Positions 33,555 through 61,018 of a stretch of 64,000 bases of DNA are shown in pieces. The translations under genes and the position numbers were made by a program. Origin of the DNA: Escherichia coli (GTDB lineage: Bacteria; Pseudomonadota; Gammaproteobacteria; Enterobacterales; Enterobacteriaceae). Location of the stretch: NCBI RefSeq assembly GCF_003334815.1, contig NZ_QOWO01000001.1; one strand, 5' to 3'. Each line of letters starts with the position of its first letter. The stretch's first letter is position 1. Under the pieces are notes generated by a model that made no database searches, had not been told where the DNA came from, and was given only the letters and a program-made list of their open reading frames with translations.

Positions 33555-33575
<21 letters not shown>

Positions 33576-34048: not shown

Positions 34049-34351
34049 ATGACACCCTGGTTTCTTTACTTGATCCGTACCGCCGACAATAAGCTTTATA
34101 CCGGGATCACCACGGATGTCGAACGCCGCTATCAGCAGCACCAAAGCGGCAAAGGGGCGAAAGCACTGCGCGGGAAAGGAGAACTAACGCTGGTGTTTTC
34201 CGCGCCAGTGGGCGATCGTTCGCTGGCGTTACGGGCGGAATATCGCGTTAAGCAACTGACCAAACGGCAAAAAGAGCGTCTGGTAGCGGAAGGCGCAGGG
34301 TTTGCAGAGCTGTTAAGCAGTCTGCAAACCCCGGAGATTAAAAGCGATTGA
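34049..34351 (+). CDS. yhbQ: GIY-YIG domain nuclease YhbQ
   Basis: 100-aa ORF with LYTGITTD...RRYQQH GIY-YIG signature. Confidence 0.85.
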
Positions 34352-47424: not shown

Positions 47425-50097
47425 TTAAGCAATGGTACGTTGGATCTCGATGATTTCGAATACTTCGATCACATCGCCAGTGCGGACGTCGTTGTAGTTC
47501 TTAACGCCGATACCACATTCCATACCGTTACGGACTTCGTTAACGTCATCTTTGAAGCGGCGCAGGGACTCCAGCTCGCCTTCGTAGATAACCACGTTGT
47601 CACGCAGAACGCGGATCGGGTTGTGACGTTTAACCACACCTTCGGTAACCATACAGCCTGCGATGGCACCAAATTTCGGCGATTTGAACACGTCACGAAC
47701 TTCCGCCAGACCGATAATCTGCTGTTTCAGTTCCGGAGACAGCATACCGCTCATCGCCGCTTTCACTTCGTCAATCAGGTTATAGATGACGGAGTAGTAA
47801 CGCAGATCCAGGCTTTCCGCTTCAATCACTTTACGTGCAGAGGCATCAGCACGTACGTTAAAGCCAACCAGGATGGCGTTGGACGCCGCAGCCAGGGTGG
47901 CGTCGGTTTCGGTGATACCACCTACGCCAGAACCGATGATCTTCACTTTAACTTCGTCAGTAGACAGTTTCAGCAAGGAGTCGGAGATCGCTTCGACAGA
48001 ACCCTGTACGTCTGCCTTCAGGACGATATTCACTTCGTGAACTTCGCCTTCGGTCATGTTGGCGAACATGTTCTCGAGTTTAGATTTCTGCTGACGCGCC
48101 AGTTTAACTTCGCGGAATTTACCCTGACGATAGAGTGCAACTTCACGCGCTTTCTTCTCGTCACGTACAACGGTAACTTCATCACCCGCAGCCGGTACGC
48201 CGGACAGGCCGAGGATTTCCACCGGAATGGACGGACCCGCTTCCAGCACTTCCTGACCCAGTTCGTTACGCATCGCACGAACACGACCGTATTCGAAGCC
48301 ACACAGAACGATATCGCCCTTGTGCAGAGTACCTTCACGTACCAGAACGGTAGCAACCGGACCACGACCTTTATCGAGGAAGGATTCGATAACCGCACCG
48401 CTCGCCATACCTTTACGTACCGCTTTCAGCTCCAGAACTTCCGCCTGCAGCAGGATAGCGTCCAGCAGTTCATCGATACCGGTACCCGCTTTCGCAGATA
48501 CGTGTACGAACTGGCTTTCACCGCCCCACTCTTCCGGCAGGATGCCGTACTGGGAGAGTTCGTTCTTAACGCGATCCGGATCAGCTTCTGGTTTATCGAT
48601 CTTGTTCACTGCAACCACCACCGGTACCTGCGCCGCTTTCGCGTGCTGGATTGCTTCGATGGTCTGCGGCATCACACCGTCGTCGGCAGCAACAACCAGG
48701 ACTACGATGTCCGTTGCCTGCGCACCACGAGCACGCATTGAAGTAAACGCGGCGTGCCCCGGGGTGTCCAGGAAGGTGATCATGCCGTTTTCAGTTTCAA
48801 CGTGGTATGCACCAATGTGCTGGGTAATGCCGCCCGCTTCGCCAGAGGCCACTTTCGTTGAACGAATGTAGTCCAGCAGAGAGGTTTTACCGTGGTCAAC
48901 GTGACCCATGATGGTCACAACCGGCGCGCGCGGTTCAGCCGCAGCACCCGTGTCACGGTCGCTCATTACCGCCTCTTCCAGCTCGTTTTCACGACGCAGG
49001 ATAACTTTATGGCCCATCTCTTCAGCAACCAGCTGTGCGGTTTCCTGATCGATAACCTGGTTGATGGTTGCCATTGCGCCCAGTTTCATCATCGCTTTGA
49101 TGACCTGAGAGCCTTTAACCGCCATCTTGTTCGCCAGTTCGCCAACGGTGATAGTTTCGCCGATCACAACGTCACGGTTAACGGCCTGAGCAGGCTTCTG
49201 GAAGCCTTGCTGCAGCGAAGAACCTTTACGTTTTCCGCCTTTACCGCCACGTACTGCTGCGCGTGCTTCTTCACGATCAGCTTTTGATTCAGCGTGTTTG
49301 TTGCCTTTCTTCGGACGCGCTGCTTTCGCGTTACGACCACGGCCACGGCCGCCTTCGACTTCACGATCGCTTTCGTCTTCTGCCTGGCGAGCATGTTGAG
49401 AAGTAGTGACGTGATAATCGCTGGAATCTTCAGTCGGTTCCGCGTTATCAGTCCATTTGTTTTCTTCCGCCATACGACGTGCTTCTTCAGCAACGCGACG
49501 TGCTTCTTCTTCGAGTTTACGACGCGCTTCTTCTTCAGCTTTACGCTTGAGCTCTGCAGCTTCCTGCTCACGGCGGGCTTTTTCAGCCTGGGCGTTTTTA
49601 GTCATATCGTCTTGTTGATTGCTCACTTTGTCTTTTTCCGCAGCTTCACGTTTCGCTTGTTCAGCAGCTTCACGCTTAGCTTGTTCTGCGGCCTCACGTT
49701 CAGCTTTTTGTTGCGCCTCGCGTTTAGCCGATTCTTCTGCCTCACGACGGGCTTGCTCTTCCGCTTCACGCTGCGCTTGCTCTTCCGCTGCAAGGCGTTC
49801 AGCCTCTTGCGGATCGCGTTTCACAAAGGTGCGTTTCTTGCGGACTTCGATTTGTACCGATTTGCTTTTTCCACCGGTACCAGGAATGTTAAGGGTGCTG
49901 CGTGTTTTACGTTGCAGCGTCAATTTGTCCGGGCCTGAATTTTTCTGATTCAGGTGGTCAATCAAAGTCTGTTTCTCTTGTGCAGACACAGAGTCGTCAG
50001 CAGACTTCCGGATACCTGCATCAGCAAATTGCTGTACCAGGCGTTCCACGGAGGTCTGTCGCTCTGCGGCCAGCGTTTTAATCGTTACATCTGTCAT
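47425..50097 (-). CDS. infB: Translation initiation factor IF-2
   Basis: 890-aa ORF; GTPase motifs GHVDHGKT and DTPGH; repetitive charged N-terminal region. Confidence 0.95.
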
Positions 50098-50121
50098 GCT
50101 GTTCCTTCCTGCTACAGTTTA

Positions 50122-51609
<1,488 letters not shown>

Positions 51610-51636
51610 CGCGGGCTTTTCACCTCATCCAGACTA

Positions 51637-52089
51637 TTAAAAGTGGGGAACCAGGTTCGCCTTCTGGATATTACTCAGCGCGAACACTTCATCTTTACCT
51701 TCGACGGTAACTGTGATCATTTCACCGTCTACCGCTTTGATAACGCCCTGCCATTTACGACGGTTTTGTACCGCCATACGGAGAACCAGAGTCACCTCTT
51801 CTCCGACAAAACGGGCGTAGTGTTCAGCCGTGAACAGTGGGCGATCGAGACCCGGTGAGGAGACTTCCAGGTTATAAGCAACGGTGATGGGATCTTCAAC
51901 ATCCAGCACAGCACTTACCTGGTGGCTCACATCAGCACAATCATCAACATTGATGCCATCTTCACTATCAATATAGATGCGCAGTGTGGATGTGCGACCG
52001 CGAATAAATTCGATGCCAACCAGTTCAAAACCCAGGGCCTCAACTGGCGCAGTAATCATCTCTGTTAATTTTTGCTCTAATGTGGACAA
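51637..52089 (-). CDS. rimP: Ribosome maturation factor RimP
   Basis: ORF 51637..52101; start assigned to TTG at 52089 (150 aa), consistent with remembered protein length; uncertain. Confidence 0.8.
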
Positions 52090-52104
52090 GCCCACCCCCA
52101 AGAC

Positions 52105-52175
52105 ATAAAAAAAGGGCCTAAAGCCCAGTTATTCTGTAGTCAGATAACAAAAAACCCCGATAAATCGGGGCTTTA
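52105..52175 (-). terminator. Two hairpin+T-run elements between metY and rimP (partial terminator/attenuator)
   Basis: Minus-strand gggctttaggccc + T-run and ccccgatttatcgggg + T-run. Confidence 0.55.
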
Positions 52176-52295
52176 TATAACTGAACCCTATAACCGCAAC
52201 TGCGGTCTGGAGCACTTTCCAGAAGGATTTTTTCAAATCCCACTACGAAGGCCGAAGTCTTCACAGTATATTTGAAAAAGGACTCTAAGGGAAAG

Positions 52296-52372
<77 letters not shown>

Positions 52373-52629
52373 CCTGAAACGTGGCAAATTCTACTCGTTT
52401 TGGGTAAAAAATGCAAATACTGCTGGGATTTGGTGTACCGAGACGGGACGTAAAATCTGCAGGCATTATAGTGATCCACGCCACATTTTGTCAACGTTTA
52501 TTGCTAATCATGTGAATGAATATCCAGTTCACTTTCATTTGTTGAATACTTTTGCCTTCTCCTGCTCTCCCTTAAGCGCATTATTTTACAAAAAACACAC
52601 TAAACTCTTCCTGTCTCCGATAAAAGATG

Positions 52630-52668
52630 ATTAAATGAAAACTCATTTATTTTGCATAAAAATTCAGT
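52630..52668 (+). promoter_or_regulatory. Tandem ARG boxes (ArgR operator) in the argG promoter
   Basis: tttgcataaaaattcagt matches the ARG-box consensus TNTGAATWWWWATTCANW at 17 of 18 positions; adjacent weaker box atgaaaactcatttat. Confidence 0.55.
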
Positions 52669-52704
52669 GAGAGCGGAAATCCAGGCTCATCATCAGTTAA
52701 TTAA

Positions 52705-54063
<1,359 letters not shown>

Positions 54064-54070
54064 TTCGACA

Positions 54071-55696
54071 TCAACCCTGCCCTTCAGGGGTGGGGTTACC
54101 TTGCTTATCCTCTGTAAACTCCTTTCTGAGCATCACATAATCGAAAACATCATGGTTTGCATCCACAACCCGTGAGTCTCCTTTATAGTGTGCAATCACT
54201 TCCTCAAGCGTTTGCGGCTGTTCCGGCTTTGTTACCCCCATCCACGCATTAATAAGGTAATTATTGTAAGCTGTCGAAAAGATGTTGTTTTCCGTTGTGC
54301 GATCCACGCCATCCCCAAGAACGGGGCTATACCAGATAAACATCGGGACATGATATGCCTGCTGGCTAGCCTCCCTGCCTCCATGAAAATAGACGTTCTT
54401 CTTCGTAGGGTCACGTTCCAGGCCGTGGTCGGCAAAATACATGACCGAGGCGCGGCGATCTTTTAATAATTCAAAAACCTGACCTAGCAAACTATCTGTG
54501 TAATGAATGGAGTTGTCATAGCAGGCATCCTGATCGTCCTGCGGTTGAAACACGGCGCTGGATTGCGGATAGGCGCTACAAGCCGGTTCATGGCTTCCAT
54601 TTAAATGAAGAACAATCAGTTTCTTTTGCTGCGTATTTTGCTGTAATGCTTGCGATAAATGCGGCAACAACAATTCATCAAATCCTCTGACATAAACTGT
54701 TTCCATGGCGCGCATGGCGATACTGGTAACTGCTGTACCATTCTGCCGAAAAGCGGATTGCGAGCTTAGCCAGAAAGTCTGAAATCCTGCTTGATTAGCC
54801 ATATTAATAATGTTGTCGGGGTAATTATGAATGTCATGACTCAAAACAGAATCAGCAGTTAAAGAAAGGGGAACCGACAGCGCAGTGTAAGGTGCGCCGC
54901 TTATTGCTTGATTAAACAGTTTGATCTGTTTTCTTTGTGCTTCAACTTGCGGTGTCGTAGAGCGTGTATATCCATACAAAGACATATTGTCGACACGTAC
55001 AGACTCCCCCACAATCAACACGTAGGTATCAATACCTGTATCCCTGACTGATAATTGAAAATACGGCACCGTGTTTGCAATTGAGAGTAATCTTTGATGC
55101 TCTTTCGCTGCTAAAGCAAAATAGTTGAGATTGAAAAACGGCGTATAGGTAGCAAATCGCGACGCTAGTATATATGGACTGAACGCTTTTTTATTTTTTG
55201 CATCTTTATAAGCAAATTGACAAGCGGAAAATAAACTGCCCGAAATGACAATCAGCAATAATATTCCTGTCACTTTTTTTGTCGGCAAGGAAACATCATA
55301 TTTTATTATTACTGCCAAAAAAAGAAGGGATAAAAAAGCAAAGGCACATAGATAAGGGATATACATCCCCAGCATTTTGACAACTTCATCCGGATCACTC
55401 TGGAGCACACTAATCGCAAATCCATCATTGAAAGTTGTACCAAAGGTACACCATGAATAGAGGCTAATACTCATGTCTGCCGCAGTCAGTAACACAAATG
55501 GTGCGGCAACAAGCAGGCGAAGCGGAAGGGATGATATACGTTTTACAACCAGGATGGTCAGAACGAAGAACAGCAAGCGCTGAACCATATGCGCTCCGGA
55601 AGAAGCGACTAAGTTCGTAATACCAAAAACAATAACACAAAGATACAACAACCAATGAGATTTAAAAGTTCTAGCAAATTTGTTGAATACTGTCAT
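54071..55696 (-). CDS. yhbX: Predicted phosphoethanolamine transferase-like membrane sulfatase-family protein YhbX
   Basis: ORF 54071..55729; start at MTVFNKFARTF (541 aa); N-terminal transmembrane helices plus sulfatase-like domain; AT-rich. Confidence 0.8.
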   Translation of the reverse strand: MTVFNKFARTFKSHWLLYLCVIVFGITNLVASSGAHMVQRLLFFVLTILVVKRISSLPLRLLVAAPFVLLTAADMSISLYSWCTFGTTFNDGFAISVLQSDPDEVVKMLGMYIPYLCAFAFLSLLFLAVIIKYDVSLPTKKVTGILLLIVISGSLFSACQFAYKDAKNKKAFSPYILASRFATYTPFFNLNYFALAAKEHQRLLSIANTVPYFQLSVRDTGIDTYVLIVGESVRVDNMSLYGYTRSTTPQVEAQRKQIKLFNQAISGAPYTALSVPLSLTADSVLSHDIHNYPDNIINMANQAGFQTFWLSSQSAFRQNGTAVTSIAMRAMETVYVRGFDELLLPHLSQALQQNTQQKKLIVLHLNGSHEPACSAYPQSSAVFQPQDDQDACYDNSIHYTDSLLGQVFELLKDRRASVMYFADHGLERDPTKKNVYFHGGREASQQAYHVPMFIWYSPVLGDGVDRTTENNIFSTAYNNYLINAWMGVTKPEQPQTLEEVIAHYKGDSRVVDANHDVFDYVMLRKEFTEDKQGNPTPEGQG

Positions 55697-56112
55697 CCAG
55701 AAATCCAAGTTCACAACCAATATAAACAATTATCAACAATGTTTAATTTTATATCAGACATGTTTTTCAACTCTGATCCATATCAGAACGAAACACTGTT
55801 AGTTTTTTCTTTTTAAATGATGCGGCCATTGCGTTCTCAGTAATTAAATAACATTATCAATGCGTCTCTAAACATTACGCAGAACGTAGCCATCAGTCGT
55901 TATACTGACAGGAGCAGGATGGTTTATCGAGAAGTAAACATATCCGTATTCGTACCGGAACTGGAGTTGACACAATAAAGTGCCAATTATGTCAGTAGAA
56001 GGGAAAAATTTATAACTAAGGCGTACCGGCACCATCGTTTCAAGGTACCAGCTACGAGTAAAGCAACTGGACGAGATACAGATACCTGACAACCATTCCT
56101 CAGACCAGGACC

Positions 56113-56145
56113 AAAACGAAAAAAGACGCTTTTCAGCGTCTCTTT
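56113..56145 (-). terminator. Rho-independent terminator after leuU
   Basis: Minus-strand hairpin agacgctgaaaagcgtct followed by a T-run. Confidence 0.7.
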
Positions 56146-56154
56146 TCTGGAATT

Positions 56155-56241
56155 TGGTACCGAGGACGGGACTTGAACCCGTAAGCCCTATTGGGCACTA
56201 CCACCTCAAGGTAGCGTGTCTACCAATTCCACCACCTCGGC
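56155..56241 (-). tRNA. leuU: tRNA-Leu (GAG anticodon)
   Basis: Minus strand reads GCCGAGGTGGTGGAATTGGTAGACACGCTACCTTGAGGTGGTAGTGCCCAATAGGGCTTACGGGTTCAAGTCCCGTCCTCGGTACCA; long variable arm. Confidence 0.95.
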
Positions 56242-56255
56242 ACGGATACTACTTT

Positions 56256-56588
56256 TTAGTTCGGGATATCGCTGGTCGGCTTAGCCGGAGCAGCTGGCTG
56301 AGTTTGTTCGGTTTTCGCCGGTGCACTCAGATTTTCCCATTCGCTACCTTTATTGGTTTTGTTGCTATTGATGTTACCCAGCACCAGACTGATGATGAAG
56401 AATAACGTTGCCAGCAGCGCCGTCATGCGGGTCATGAAGTTACCAGAACCACTTGAACCAAACAGCGTAGCGGAAGCGCCTGCTCCGAAGGAGGCTCCCA
56501 TATCAGCGCCTTTACCTTGCTGCAGCATGATCAGACCAACAAGGCCAATTGCCACAATAAGGAAAACTACTAAAAGAGCTTCATACAT
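56256..56588 (-). CDS. secG: Protein translocase subunit SecG
   Basis: ORF 56256..56636; start at MYEALLVVFLIVAIGLVGLIMLQQGKGA (110 aa). Confidence 0.9.
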   Translation of the reverse strand: MYEALLVVFLIVAIGLVGLIMLQQGKGADMGASFGAGASATLFGSSGSGNFMTRMTALLATLFFIISLVLGNINSNKTNKGSEWENLSAPAKTEQTQPAAPAKPTSDIPN

Positions 56589-56767
56589 AATCAACCTGTT
56601 CCTTGCGGAGTTGCCGCGTACCAATGCTTCAACCAATAAAGCGGGAGTTTTTAATCTTTCCCACTGAAGCGGGTGTGAATACTAACCAAAGCGAATGACC
56701 TTCGCAAGGGCAATTTTATCGCATTGTATCAACTGCGGAAAAAAACAGCAAAACCGATGTGTTCGCT

Positions 56768-56800
56768 GAGAAAAAAGGCGACAATCGCCGCCTTTTTAGC
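56768..56800 (-). terminator. Rho-independent terminator after glmM
   Basis: Minus-strand hairpin aaaggcggcgattgtcgccttt followed by a T-run. Confidence 0.6.
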
Positions 56801-56815
56801 CAGTTATCTAACGCT

Positions 56816-58153
56816 TTAAACGGCTTTTACTGCATCGGCGATGCGGTGTGCAAATTCAGTCACCTGCGCTTCGTCTTCGCCTTCCACCATCACGCGAATT
56901 AACGGTTCGGTGCCGGATTTACGCAGCAACACGCGTCCACGGTTGCCCAGCGCAGCTTCAACCTCTGCGGTCACGGCTTTAACTGACTCATGCTCAAGTG
57001 GATCGCCGCTACCTGCGGTGTAACGTACGTTAACCAGAATCTGCGGGAACATTTTCATGCCGCTGCAAAGGTCGTGCAGGCTCATATGGTTACGTGCCAT
57101 CGCCGCCAGCACCTGCAAGCCAGCAACGATGCCGTCACCGGTAGTAGTTTTATCCAGCAGGATCACATGACCGGAATTCTCTGCACCGATACGCCAGCCT
57201 TTCTCCTGCATTTTTTCCAGTACGTAGCGGTCACCCACTTTCGCGCGCGCAAATGGAATTCCTAACTGTTTCAGCGCCAGTTCAAGCCCCATGTTGCTCA
57301 TCAATGTACCCACAGCGCCACCACGCAGCTGGCCCTGACGAAGACCTTCACGCGCGATGATATACATGATCTGATCGCCATCGACTTTATTGCCTTCATG
57401 GTCAACCATAATCACGCGATCGCCATCGCCGTCGAAGGCAATACCGAGATCCGCTTTTTCAGCCAGCACACGAGCCTGGAGCGCGCGAACGTCGGTAGCC
57501 CCCACTTCGGCATTGATGTTTACACCGTTTGGCTCACAACCGATAGCGATAACGTTCGCCCCCAGTTCGCGCAGCACGTTCGGCGCGATGTGATAAGTCG
57601 CACCGTTTGCACAATCCACCACAATCTTCAGTTCACTGAGGCTAAGTTCGTTCGGGAACGTGGCTTTGCAAAACTCGATATAGCGACCCGCGGCATCAAC
57701 GATACGGCTGGCTTTACCCAGTTCTGCCGAATCAACGCAGCTGATCTCCTTTTCCATTTCCGCTTCGATGGCCTCTTCTACCGCATCCGGCAGTTTGGTG
57801 CCGTCGATAGAGAAGAATTTAATGCCATTATCGTAGAACGGGTTATGCGATGCAGATATCACAATTCCGGCCTCTGCGCGGAAGGTACGCGTCAGATAAG
57901 CCACGGCCGGTGTTGGCATCGGGCCAGTGAAGAGTGCGGAAAGGCCCGCTGCCGCCAGACCCGCTTCCAGTGCTGACTCCAGCATATAGCCAGAAATACG
58001 CGTGTCTTTACCAATAATAATCTTACGGGAGCCGTGGCGCGCCAGCACTTTACCCGCGGCCCAACCCAGCTTAAGCACAAAATCAGGTGTGATCGGCGCA
58101 TCCCCTACACGACCACGAATCCCATCGGTACCGAAATATTTACGATTACTCAT
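56816..58153 (-). CDS. glmM: Phosphoglucosamine mutase
   Basis: 445-aa ORF with active-site motif SASHNP. Confidence 0.95.
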
Positions 58154-58994
58154 AGCGTTTGTTTTCCTTTGCAGACAGAGTGGCTTCCACCACCCGCATC
58201 GCTTCTACGGTTTCTTTGACGTCATGAACACGAATGATGTGCGCGCCTTGCATTGCGGCAATGACCGCACAGGCCAGACTACCGCTCAGGCGCTCGGACG
58301 GCCCCACGTTCAGCAGCTGCCCAATCATCGATTTTCGTGACATACCCACCAACAGCGGCAGGTTGAAATGGTGAAATTCAGCCAGGCGCGCCAGTAATGA
58401 ATAGTTATGGGAGAGATTTTTACCGAAACCGAATCCGGGGTCGAGCAACAATTTCTCTTTTGCGATACCCGCCTGCTCGCAACGTGCTATTTGCTCAATA
58501 AAGTAGCGATTCACTTCTGCAAAGACATCGTCATACTTCGGAGCTTCCTGCATGGTTTTTGGATTTCCCTGCATATGCATCAGACAAACCGGTAAACCGG
58601 TTTCTGCAGCCGCCTCCAGAGCGCCAGGTTCGGAAAGGGAGCGGATATCATTAATAATGTGAGCGCCAACTTTCGCTGACTCACGGATGACTTCTGGTTT
58701 GGATGTATCGACTGAGATCCAGACTTCGAAGCGTTGAGCAATTGCCTCAACCACAGGAATAACACGTTGCAACTCTTCTTCAACGCTAACTTCCGCCGCC
58801 CCTGGGCGCGTGGACTCGCCACCAACGTCAATGATCGTCGCGCCAGCGTTGATCATCAGATTCGCATGTTTCACCGCATCTATCAGCGAGTTATGCGTGC
58901 CACCATCCGAAAAGGAATCAGGCGTGACGTTGAGGATCCCCATTACGTGAGGATGGCTAAGGTCCAGTGAAGTACCCTGGGCAAAGAGTTTCAT
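58146..58994 (-). CDS. folP: Dihydropteroate synthase
   Basis: ORF 58146..59060; start at [28 protein letters not shown] (282 aa); 8-nt overlap with glmM. Confidence 0.9.
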
Positions 58995-59030
58995 GATGTT
59001 ATCCCTGGTATGAATTGATAAGAAAAAACC

Positions 59031-59066
59031 CCGGAGCACGCCCCGGGGTTTTCGGTACAAATACAG
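59031..59066 (-). terminator. Hairpin + T-run between ftsH and folP
   Basis: Minus-strand ccccggggcgtgctccgggg followed by a T-run. Confidence 0.55.
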
Positions 59067-59083
59067 TCATCTGATGCGGGAAC

Positions 59084-61018
59084 TTACTTGTCGCCTAACT
59101 GCTCTGACATGGTGTTACCCGGGTTCGGCGTACGCGGTTCATCAACCGGACGAGGAGCCTTTGGACTACCATTGTCGCCAGAATTGTTAGAAGCGCCTGG
59201 TTCTTCCCAGCCCGCTGGCGGACGTACATCGCGACGTGCCATCAGGTCATCAATCTGCGGTGCGTCGATAGTCTCATATTTCATGAGAGCATCTTTCATC
59301 GCATGCAGAATATCCATATTGTCGGTCAGAAGCTGACGCGCACGATTATAGTTACGCTCAATCAGTGCTTTCACTTCCTGGTCGATGATACGTGCAGTTT
59401 CATCGGACATATGTTTCGCTTTCGCTACGCTACGGCCGAGGAACACTTCACCTTCTTCTTCCGCGTACAGCAGTGGACCCAATTTCTCAGAGAAGCCCCA
59501 CTGAGTCACCATGTTACGTGCCAGGTTGGTCGCAACTTTAATATCGTTGGACGCACCGGTAGATACATGTTCCGGCCCGTAGATGATCTCTTCTGCCAGA
59601 CGACCACCGTACAGCGTAGAAATCTGGCTTTCCAGTTTCTGACGGCTGGCGCTGATTGCGTCGCCCTCAGGCAAGAAGAAAGTCACACCCAGCGCACGAC
59701 CGCGTGGGATAATCGTCACTTTGTGCACCGGATCGTGTTCCGGCACCAGGCGACCGATAATCGCATGACCCGCTTCGTGGTAAGCCGTCGATTCTTTCTG
59801 CGCTTCCGTCATCACCATGGAGCGACGTTCCGCACCCATCATGATTTTGTCTTTCGCTTTCTCGAACTCAACCATCGACACAACGCGTTTGTTGCCACGA
59901 GCAGCGAACAGTGCCGCTTCGTTCACCAGGTTCGCCAGGTCAGCACCGGAGAAACCAGGAGTACCACGGGCAATGATTGCCGCGTCGATATCGGGTGCCA
60001 ATGGTACGCGACGCATGTGAACTTTCAGGATCTGCTCACGACCGCGAACATCTGGCAAGCCGACCACAACCTGACGGTCGAAACGGCCAGGACGCAGCAG
60101 GGCCGGGTCGAGAACGTCCGGACGGTTAGTCGCGGCGATAACGATGATACCTTCGTTACCTTCGAAGCCATCCATCTCAACCAGCATCTGGTTCAGAGTC
60201 TGTTCACGTTCATCGTGACCACCGCCCAGACCAGCGCCACGCTGGCGGCCTACGGCGTCGATTTCATCGATAAAGATGATGCACGGTGCCGCTTTCTTCG
60301 CCTGTTCGAACATGTCACGAACACGGGATGCACCCACACCGACGAACATTTCTACGAAGTCAGAACCGGAGATAGTAAAGAACGGAACTTTCGCTTCGCC
60401 TGCAATCGCTTTCGCCAGCAGCGTTTTACCGGTACCCGGAGGACCGACCATCAAGACGCCTTTCGGGATCTTACCGCCGAGTTTCTGGAAGCGGCTCGGC
60501 TCGCGCAGATACTCAACCAGTTCAGCAACTTCTTCTTTTGCTTCGTCGCAGCCCGCAACGTCAGCAAAGGTCGTTTTGATCTGATCTTCCGTCAGCATGC
60601 GCGCTTTGCTCTTACCAAACGACATGGCACCTTTGCCACCGCCGCCCTGCATTTGACGCATGAAGAAGATCCAGACACCAATCAGCAACAGCATCGGGAA
60701 CCAAGAGATGAAGATAGAAGCCAGCAGGCTTGGTTCTTCAGGCGGTTCACCGACAACCTTGACGTTCTTGGTCAACAGGTTATCCAGTAATTTCGGATCC
60801 TGAACCGGAATGTAAGTGGTATAACGGTTACTATCTTTCTTGGTAACGTTGATTTCACGTCCGTTGATACGCGCTTCACGAACCTGGTCGTTATTGACCT
60901 CTTGTAGGAAGGTAGAGTAATCCACCTTACGGCCATTAGACTCGCTGGGCCCAAAGCTCTGGAATACTGACATCAGCACAACGGCAATGACCAGCCAGAG
61001 TATTAGGTTTTTCGCCAT
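59084..61018 (-). CDS. ftsH: ATP-dependent zinc metalloprotease FtsH (HflB)
   Basis: ORF 59084..61027; start at [14 protein letters not shown] (644 aa); Walker [12 protein letters not shown] second region and zinc site HEAGH. Confidence 0.95.

Follow-up and report, generated by a model that had tools for sequence, protein, structure and literature searches.

In Escherichia coli the genes argG and yhbX converge and their stop codons nearly touch, which raises the questions of where and how transcription of argG ends, how the tight spacing arose and whether the contact between the two transcripts has a function. The locus was analysed in a 64,000-nucleotide stretch of E. coli DNA (contig NZ_QOWO01000001.1), referred to below as the window; window coordinates equal MG1655 coordinates minus 3265917. 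The gene pair is made up of the following elements:

52642 (MG1655 3318559), + strand: argG transcription start site, from the SMRT-Cappable-seq unit 3318559-3320017, which covers b3172 alone
52720 to 54063, + strand: argG CDS (argininosuccinate synthase), stop codon TAA at 54061-54063; ORF list, RefSeq and NCBIfam equivalog
54064 to 54070, no strand: gap between the stop codons, TTCGACA, 7 bp; sequence and annotation
54071 to 55696, − strand: yhbX CDS, 541 aa, phosphoethanolamine-transferase/sulfatase family, stop codon TGA read from 54073 to 54071; ORF list, RefSeq and Pfam PF00884

The sequence-only reading of the window had placed the two stop codons 7 bp apart, and this is borne out by the ORF list, the sequence and the MG1655 RefSeq annotation (argG 3318637..3319980, yhbX 3319988..3321613; identical 7-bp gap). 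The window is E. coli K-12 DNA. Over the 1.2 kb surrounding the junction it matches K-12-type genomes with 100% identity, and a search of 5426 complete E. coli genomes found this segment in every one. ArgG scored 920.9 bits against the NCBIfam equivalog NF003779 (cut-off 657). YhbX, a paralogue of the phosphoethanolamine-transferase family, stayed under every curated NCBIfam cut-off. The yhbX open frame continues for 11 codons upstream of the annotated ATG (55697-55729), to a TTG at 55729, and a 552-aa version of YhbX is used in some database entries (P0001, P0029). An Rfam search of 52000-56400 returned the rimP leader (52107-52207) and two tRNAs only, with no match at the junction. A perfect (12/12) sigma-70 consensus promoter, TTGACA-18-TATAAT, lies at 52465-52494 on the − strand upstream of the metY tRNA; it is presumably the promoter of the metY-rimP-nusA-infB operon.

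The spacing itself is not unusual. The MG1655 annotation has eight convergent CDS pairs in the 64-kb window, with gaps of +54, +42, +113, −21, −14, +117, +7 and +155 bp. Because three of these eight pairs have gaps of 7 bp or less, and two overlap outright, so close a spacing of argG and yhbX is within what chance alone would produce. The overlapping pairs are yhbO/yhbP (21 nt, 33555-33575) and yhbQ/yhbS (14 nt, 34338-34351), both of which are also in the published excludon list.

Two independent published data sets locate the 3′ end of the argG mRNA inside yhbX, close to a stem-loop:

54100 (MG1655 3320017), + strand: mature argG mRNA 3′ end, 3 nt past the stem; Term-seq and SMRT-Cappable-seq
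54073 to 54097, + strand: stem-loop in the argG 3′ UTR, AACCCUGCCCU-UCA-GGGGUGGGGUU, 11 bp including three G.U pairs; RNA fold

In the Term-seq data of Adams et al. 2021 (Supplementary file 1, sheet M63 0.4) the curated 3′ end 3320017 (+) has 903 reads in M63 glucose, and is labelled 'primary' for argG and 'antisense' to yhbX. It was found in minimal medium only, where argG is derepressed (Adams et al. 2021). According to Supplementary Data 1 of Yan et al. 2018, SMRT-Cappable-seq gave a full-length unit extending from 3318559 to 3320017. Of 839 M9 reads that began at the argG start site, 504 (60%) ended at 3320017, 52 argG reads ended at most 50 bp downstream of it, and 39 reads (4.6%) passed the argG site with a median read-through of 34 nt; the site carries the flag 'novelTTS', that is, no known terminator (Yan et al. 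2018). The end at 54100 is 37 nt past the argG stop codon and 30 nt into yhbX, including the yhbX stop codon. The mature argG 3′ UTR is 37 nt long, and over its final 30 nt it reads as the reverse complement of the last nine yhbX codons plus the stop codon.

The proposal that the two transcripts must overlap is upheld by the end at 54100 found with both methods and by ExcludonFinder, in which argG-yhbX is named among 165 convergent overlapping MG1655 pairs, the criterion being that the transcripts overlap in 50% or more of the 58 RNA-seq datasets (Sanmartin et al. 2025, NAR; PMC12288877). Complete argG and yhbX mRNAs must share at least 30 complementary nucleotides, because a complete yhbX mRNA includes the stop codon at 54071-54073 and the argG mRNA reaches 54100.

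The stem-loop at 54073-54097 is written by the last eight yhbX codons (NPTPEGQG) and one base of the stop codon. On the + strand it folds with −17.1 kcal/mol (z = −2.5, equalled by 1 of 200 shuffles), whereas the version in the yhbX transcript reaches −11.9 kcal/mol (z = −0.7). The hairpin is weaker on the − strand because the three G.U pairs turn into C.A mismatches, and in view of this drop the structure is specific to the argG transcript. Across the window, 31 places on the + strand have a hairpin of this stability; from 47372 to 59637 the argG hairpin stands alone. Of 5179 E. coli genomes, 4980 (96%) share an identical copy of the 40-mer around it, an adjacent yhbX 40-mer is identical in 4600 of 5034 genomes (91%), and for another flanking 40-mer the value is 40%. 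Invariance within the species was considered as a sign of selection on the hairpin and set aside: the genomes are related, and the comparison (96% against 91% and 40%) discriminates unclearly.

The argG hairpin is not essential, since argG continues to serve as a selectable marker after insertion of an operon at argG-yhbX. In this system, EASY-edit, a synthetic operon with its own terminators was put into the argG-yhbX 'intergenic region'. The EASY-edit insertion site is inside the argG 3′ UTR, at most 9 nt upstream of the stem-loop that defines the 3′ end. A natural insertion was seen in strain ET565 (NZ_CP100944.1; L086 2624-3836), where an IS3-family element sits within the last ~30 yhbX codons; it corresponds to approximately 54112-54155 of the window, 10-55 nt beyond the argG 3′ end, and leaves the argG hairpin intact.

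The sequence-only reading had further stated that the junction has no room for terminators. The statement holds for the 7-bp gap, which contains none, but not for the junction as a whole, as a stem-loop inside the yhbX CDS defines the argG 3′ end. A consensus scan for intrinsic terminators called no site at the argG-yhbX junction, which excludes a canonical site only. Between 54073 and 54100 there is a stem, but it is not directly followed by a U-tract: ACCUUGCU, the 8-nt stretch past it, has only 3 U. Downstream of the 3′ end lies a tract of different composition:

54103 to 54180, + strand: C-rich, G-poor tract, candidate Rho-utilisation region, C/G = 2.09 (29% C, 14% G)

This is the highest C/G ratio downstream of argG. 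Adams et al. 2021 reported a bicyclomycin (BCM)-sensitive Rho termination region at 3320019 (+), with a Rho score of 3.76 and p = 1.4e-7. Without BCM, the 800 nt upstream and downstream of it had 50 and 44 reads, respectively; BCM raised these to 64 and 212 (Adams et al. 2021). These DirectRNA-seq counts are low and come from LB cultures, in which argG is repressed, and some of the signal may originate from + strand transcripts begun within yhbX. A second, 'orphan' + strand Rho region of Adams et al. 2021, 3321743 (approximately 55826 in the window), is located just upstream of the yhbX start, with 199 3′-end reads in the preceding 800 nt. The reads upstream of this region show that + strand (antisense) RNA arises inside yhbX independently of argG, and for this reason some of the BCM-sensitive signal may not come from argG. 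Promoter-like + strand sites inside yhbX were noted at 54162-54189, 54441-54470 and 55282-55309.

The stem-loop without a U-tract, the C-rich, G-poor tract after it and the bicyclomycin-sensitive region agree with release of polymerase by Rho, and termination of argG appears to be Rho-dependent and to take place further downstream, inside yhbX. For Rho-dependent transcripts Dar and Sorek 2018 (NAR; PMC6061677) described steady-state 3′ ends situated just past a protective stem-loop. They ascribed such ends, some of which are inside downstream coding regions, to exonuclease trimming (PMC6061677). Transcription of argG, having no ancestral terminator, runs into the 3′ end of yhbX; by analogy with this class, the polymerase would most likely be released by Rho some way inside the gene, and the RNA would then be trimmed in 3′-to-5′ direction to the protective hairpin, leaving the end at 54100.

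The hairpin could instead be a weak, U-poor intrinsic terminator at which the polymerase stops without Rho, and 54100 the true point of termination. Intrinsic terminators usually produce 3′ ends 7-9 nt into the U-tract. The argG 3′ end is just 3 nt after the stem, with only 3 U in ACCUUGCU and no call in the consensus scan. The concentration of ends is what such a terminator would give, 60% of the full-length argG reads ending exactly at the site and 4.6% passing it, and the low steady-state read-through equally fits a non-canonical intrinsic stop. The hairpin is stable enough (−17.1 kcal/mol). The significant bicyclomycin sensitivity of the site and the C>G tract after it form the signature of Rho-dependent ends (Dar and Sorek), although the low-count BCM signal could stem from antisense transcripts begun inside yhbX. 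Taking these points together, we find an intrinsic stop doubtful.

Ju et al. are said to have described, in 2019, overlapping bidirectional terminators. In the account of Wang et al. 2022 (bioRxiv 10.1101/2022.10.23.513370) overlapping bidirectional terminators are driven by polymerase collision and are Rho-independent. The junction can be read as such an element, in which head-on collisions between argG and yhbX polymerases, aided by the hairpin, end both transcripts. It resembles this class in being a convergent pair with a hairpin in the shared segment, no canonical terminator and a sharp + strand end. It differs in that the hairpin is strand-asymmetric, being weak on the yhbX strand (−11.9 kcal/mol, z = −0.7), where it precedes the stop codon; yhbX termination at the hairpin would yield mRNAs lacking a stop codon. 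A hairpin functioning in both directions downstream of both stop codons was not found at 54073-54097. The argG site is moreover reported as BCM-sensitive, unlike a Rho-independent class, and only the + strand end has been mapped; the absence of a yhbX 3′ end from the Term-seq and SMRT-Cappable-seq tables suggests too few colliding polymerases relative to argG. Termination of both transcripts by collision is, in our estimate, very unlikely at this locus.

Release by Rho followed by trimming leaves the question of why argG should have no terminator of its own. A scan of species genomes with the ArgG C-terminus (100,044 genomes) yielded 80 loci that were kept, no other Escherichia species being among them. 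None of these 80 loci from other species had a YhbX homologue within 3 kb downstream of argG. The 23 loci from Enterobacterales were inspected by eye, and in most of them, clearly in 15, argG is followed by a hairpin and a T-run. The Enterobacterales argG terminator typically lies ~15-50 nt past the argG stop codon (Citrobacter example, TAAGGCCGCGAAAGCGGCCTTTTTT); the canonical form, found in other Enterobacteriaceae and in yhbX-less E. coli, is AAGGCCGC-N4-GCGGCC-T7. In Enterobacter (L010, L015) the argG terminator is followed almost at once by the leuU terminator and leuU, ~60-110 nt past the argG stop codon.

The K-12 argG-yhbX junction was found in 5179 of the 5426 E. coli genomes; ~247 (about 5%) are without it. 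The alternative allele was read in two genomes of the 247, VG12A2 and JNE151685. Homology between these two and K-12 stops at 54064 and resumes at 56113, in the leuU terminator, delimiting an exchangeable segment:

54065 to 56112, no strand: variable yhbX cassette, ~2.05 kb, defined by the homology breaks; the alternative allele has a different segment of 1.17 kb
56113 to 56147, − strand: leuU intrinsic terminator, the right boundary common to both cassette alleles; terminator scan and resumption of homology

The alternative 1.17-kb segment (L090 3766-4933, NZ_CP128592.1; second sample, L091) has a terminator, AAAGGCCGCAAATGCGGCCTTTTTTT, 21 nt after the argG stop codon, and a co-directional gene for a 317-aa helix-turn-helix (HTH) protein, WP_001012978.1. 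The product had no NCBIfam match, and PADLOC gave weak matches to the HTH motif only. In the alignment the AAAGGCCGCAAATGCGGCCTTTTTTT terminator is orthologous to those of Citrobacter, Kluyvera, Superficieibacter and Pseudocitrobacter, and the K-12 allele contains nothing alignable to this ancestral argG terminator. The canonical terminator and the K-12 element occupy the same site after the stop codon and have the same role of setting the argG 3′ end. The former consists of a GC-rich stem, GGCCGC/GCGGCC, followed by 6-7 T, whereas the latter is unrelated in sequence, has no T-run and is inside a CDS.

The two alleles also differ in the last two argG codons, which are GGC CAG (Gly-Gln) in K-12 and GTT AAG (Val-Lys) in the alternative allele; elsewhere GCN or GGG is followed by AAG or AAA. 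At the protein level the ArgG C-terminus (54054-54063) is Gly-Gln together with yhbX, and, in the nearest of the other genera aligned, Ala-Lys or Gly-Lys. From the codon comparison we infer that the last two argG codons either travel with the cassette or were altered after its arrival, and because they differ between the alleles the left breakpoint of the cassette may be as early as 54057, two codons inside argG.

The GC content of yhbX is 0.375-0.475, compared with 0.47-0.555 for argG. From these comparisons a low-GC cassette of ~2 kb, carrying yhbX in the opposite orientation, would have been acquired horizontally, beginning at the argG stop codon or at most two codons before it, and would have displaced the canonical argG terminator in most E. 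coli. The compact, gene-free argG-leuU arrangement of Enterobacter is probably the ancestral one, and judged by the alleles compared the argG-leuU interval behaves as a replacement hotspot. The direction of the event, gain of yhbX rather than its loss elsewhere, is suggested solely by the outgroup terminators and the GC content. The 7-bp gap is thus probably a scar left where the yhbX cassette replaced the ancestral argG 3′ UTR and terminator, and not a designed regulatory module. The account as a whole, in which the cassette left a scar, Rho releases polymerase inside yhbX and the RNA is trimmed to the hairpin at 54100, is in our judgement likely to be right.

For the comparison of YhbX C-termini relatives were taken from 50%-identity representatives; an initial protein search, which returned near-identical E. 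coli clusters alone, was set aside. Beyond the E. coli cluster, no full-length relative of YhbX exceeds 46% identity. The aligned relatives, all but one, end 2-10 residues past the conserved L523, while YhbX runs 18 residues past it. On account of this difference the YhbX tail DKQGNPTPEGQG, which encodes the argG hairpin, is judged by the alignment not to be conserved as protein. Several further candidates were discarded or gave nothing. P0157 and P0129, two YhbX-like fragments, come from E. coli contigs with many errors or with frameshifts (one of them has 83.5% nucleotide identity, yet its ArgG has 64% protein identity), and hit H12 belongs to an assembly riddled with frameshifts; P0121, the nearest homologue, sits on a short metagenome contig whose context is uninformative. 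In the clinical isolate K-15KW01 (NZ_CP016358.1; L084) yhbX is annotated as a frameshifted pseudogene, which suggests that yhbX is dispensable. Papers that name yhbX in strain construction or in sigma-54 screens contained nothing on its regulation.

For yhbX itself, neither the Term-seq tables of Adams 2021 nor the SMRT-Cappable-seq tables of Yan 2018 list a 3′ end, and this fits a very low expression of the gene. Folding of the opposite strand pointed to one candidate:

53988 to 54061, − strand: candidate yhbX terminator inside the argG CDS, prediction only; long imperfect hairpin, 54061-53992, then UUUU at 53991-53988

Its predicted fold has −31.8 kcal/mol (z = −2.4, equalled by 8 of 500 shuffles). 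The outer 8-bp helix is built on GGC CAG, the two final argG codons, and the yhbX-less allele lacks it. Species that have no yhbX possess a homologous argG segment of comparable folding energy (−35.5 kcal/mol in Kluyvera, for example), and for this reason the candidate is kept as a prediction only. If it were real, the argG-yhbX overlap would be ~113 nt. On it one could build a scheme of mutual embedding, in which the hairpin of each 3′ end lies in the last codons of the other gene, an obligatory ~113-nt duplex lets arginine starvation shut off an envelope phosphoethanolamine transferase, and the argG Gly-Gln codons were selected to build the terminator. We consider this scheme very unlikely.

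A simpler functional proposal, in line with the transcriptional interference or RNase III-sensitive duplexes that the sequence-only reading had allowed for, is that the pair is a working excludon: arginine limitation would derepress argG, and read-through together with the duplex of at least 30 nt would lower yhbX through colliding polymerases or RNase III cleavage. Whenever both full-length mRNAs are present they necessarily overlap, the overlap would lengthen to ~113 nt with the candidate terminator inside argG, and the E. coli excludome includes the pair, its transcripts overlapping in 50% or more of the 58 transcriptomes. That coverage criterion is, however, easily satisfied with a 7-bp gap and one barely expressed gene. 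In a p19 dsRNA-capture study convergent 3′ overlaps gave ~38-fold less dsRNA signal than divergent 5′ overlaps, and neither argG nor yhbX appears in the ten supplementary files of that study, under its growth conditions. Self-folding of the argG 3′ end would compete with duplex formation, and steady-state read-through is short (median 34 nt). The arrangement is not conserved beyond E. coli, it is replaced in ~5% of strains, and natural and engineered disruptions of the locus exist. The literature searched yielded no anticorrelated expression and no RNase III data for argG and yhbX. A working excludon is therefore quite unlikely in our opinion. The overlap is probably tolerated rather than used, since yhbX is weakly expressed, and any interference would be one-way: derepressed and strongly expressed argG (839 start-site reads in M9) would lower the yield of full-length yhbX transcript.

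Convergent genes that lie close together or overlap are commonplace in E. coli, and taken alone the finding matters little. It is ordinary and already known, in that the pair is in a published overlap list and the argG 3′ end has been mapped twice; the present analysis adds the probable origin by cassette replacement and the strand-specific hairpin in the non-conserved tail of the neighbouring protein, and these only. The locus may serve as a worked example of how a horizontally acquired cassette can remove the terminator of a housekeeping gene, after which the cell would rely on Rho and a stem-loop, in this case one supplied by the non-conserved tail of the gene brought in. It also illustrates that an 'intergenic' neutral insertion site, the argG-yhbX locus of EASY-edit, can actually be within a 3′ UTR, that of argG. 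The two natural alleles, a yhbX cassette without terminator and an HTH cassette with the ancestral terminator, offer a ready comparison for the cost of terminator loss.

In summary, argG-yhbX joins two arrangements of known kinds: the genes converge with overlapping transcripts, and the argG 3′ end is probably a Rho-dependent one guarded by a stem-loop. [quoted passage not shown] Like them, argG and yhbX are adjacent, opposed and overlapping in their transcripts, with the argG end 30 nt inside yhbX; the definition adds mutually exclusive expression and RNase III processing, and argG-yhbX is placed in the class by overlap alone (PMC12288877). The likeness to the class of Dar and Sorek (PMC6061677) extends to more features: a sharp 3′ end 3 nt past a stable stem-loop, no U-tract, more C than G just downstream, an end inside a downstream CDS and, probably, bicyclomycin sensitivity. 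The argG junction differs from that class in that the downstream gene is convergent, and the hairpin at the argG 3′ end is the antisense of the last eight codons of yhbX.
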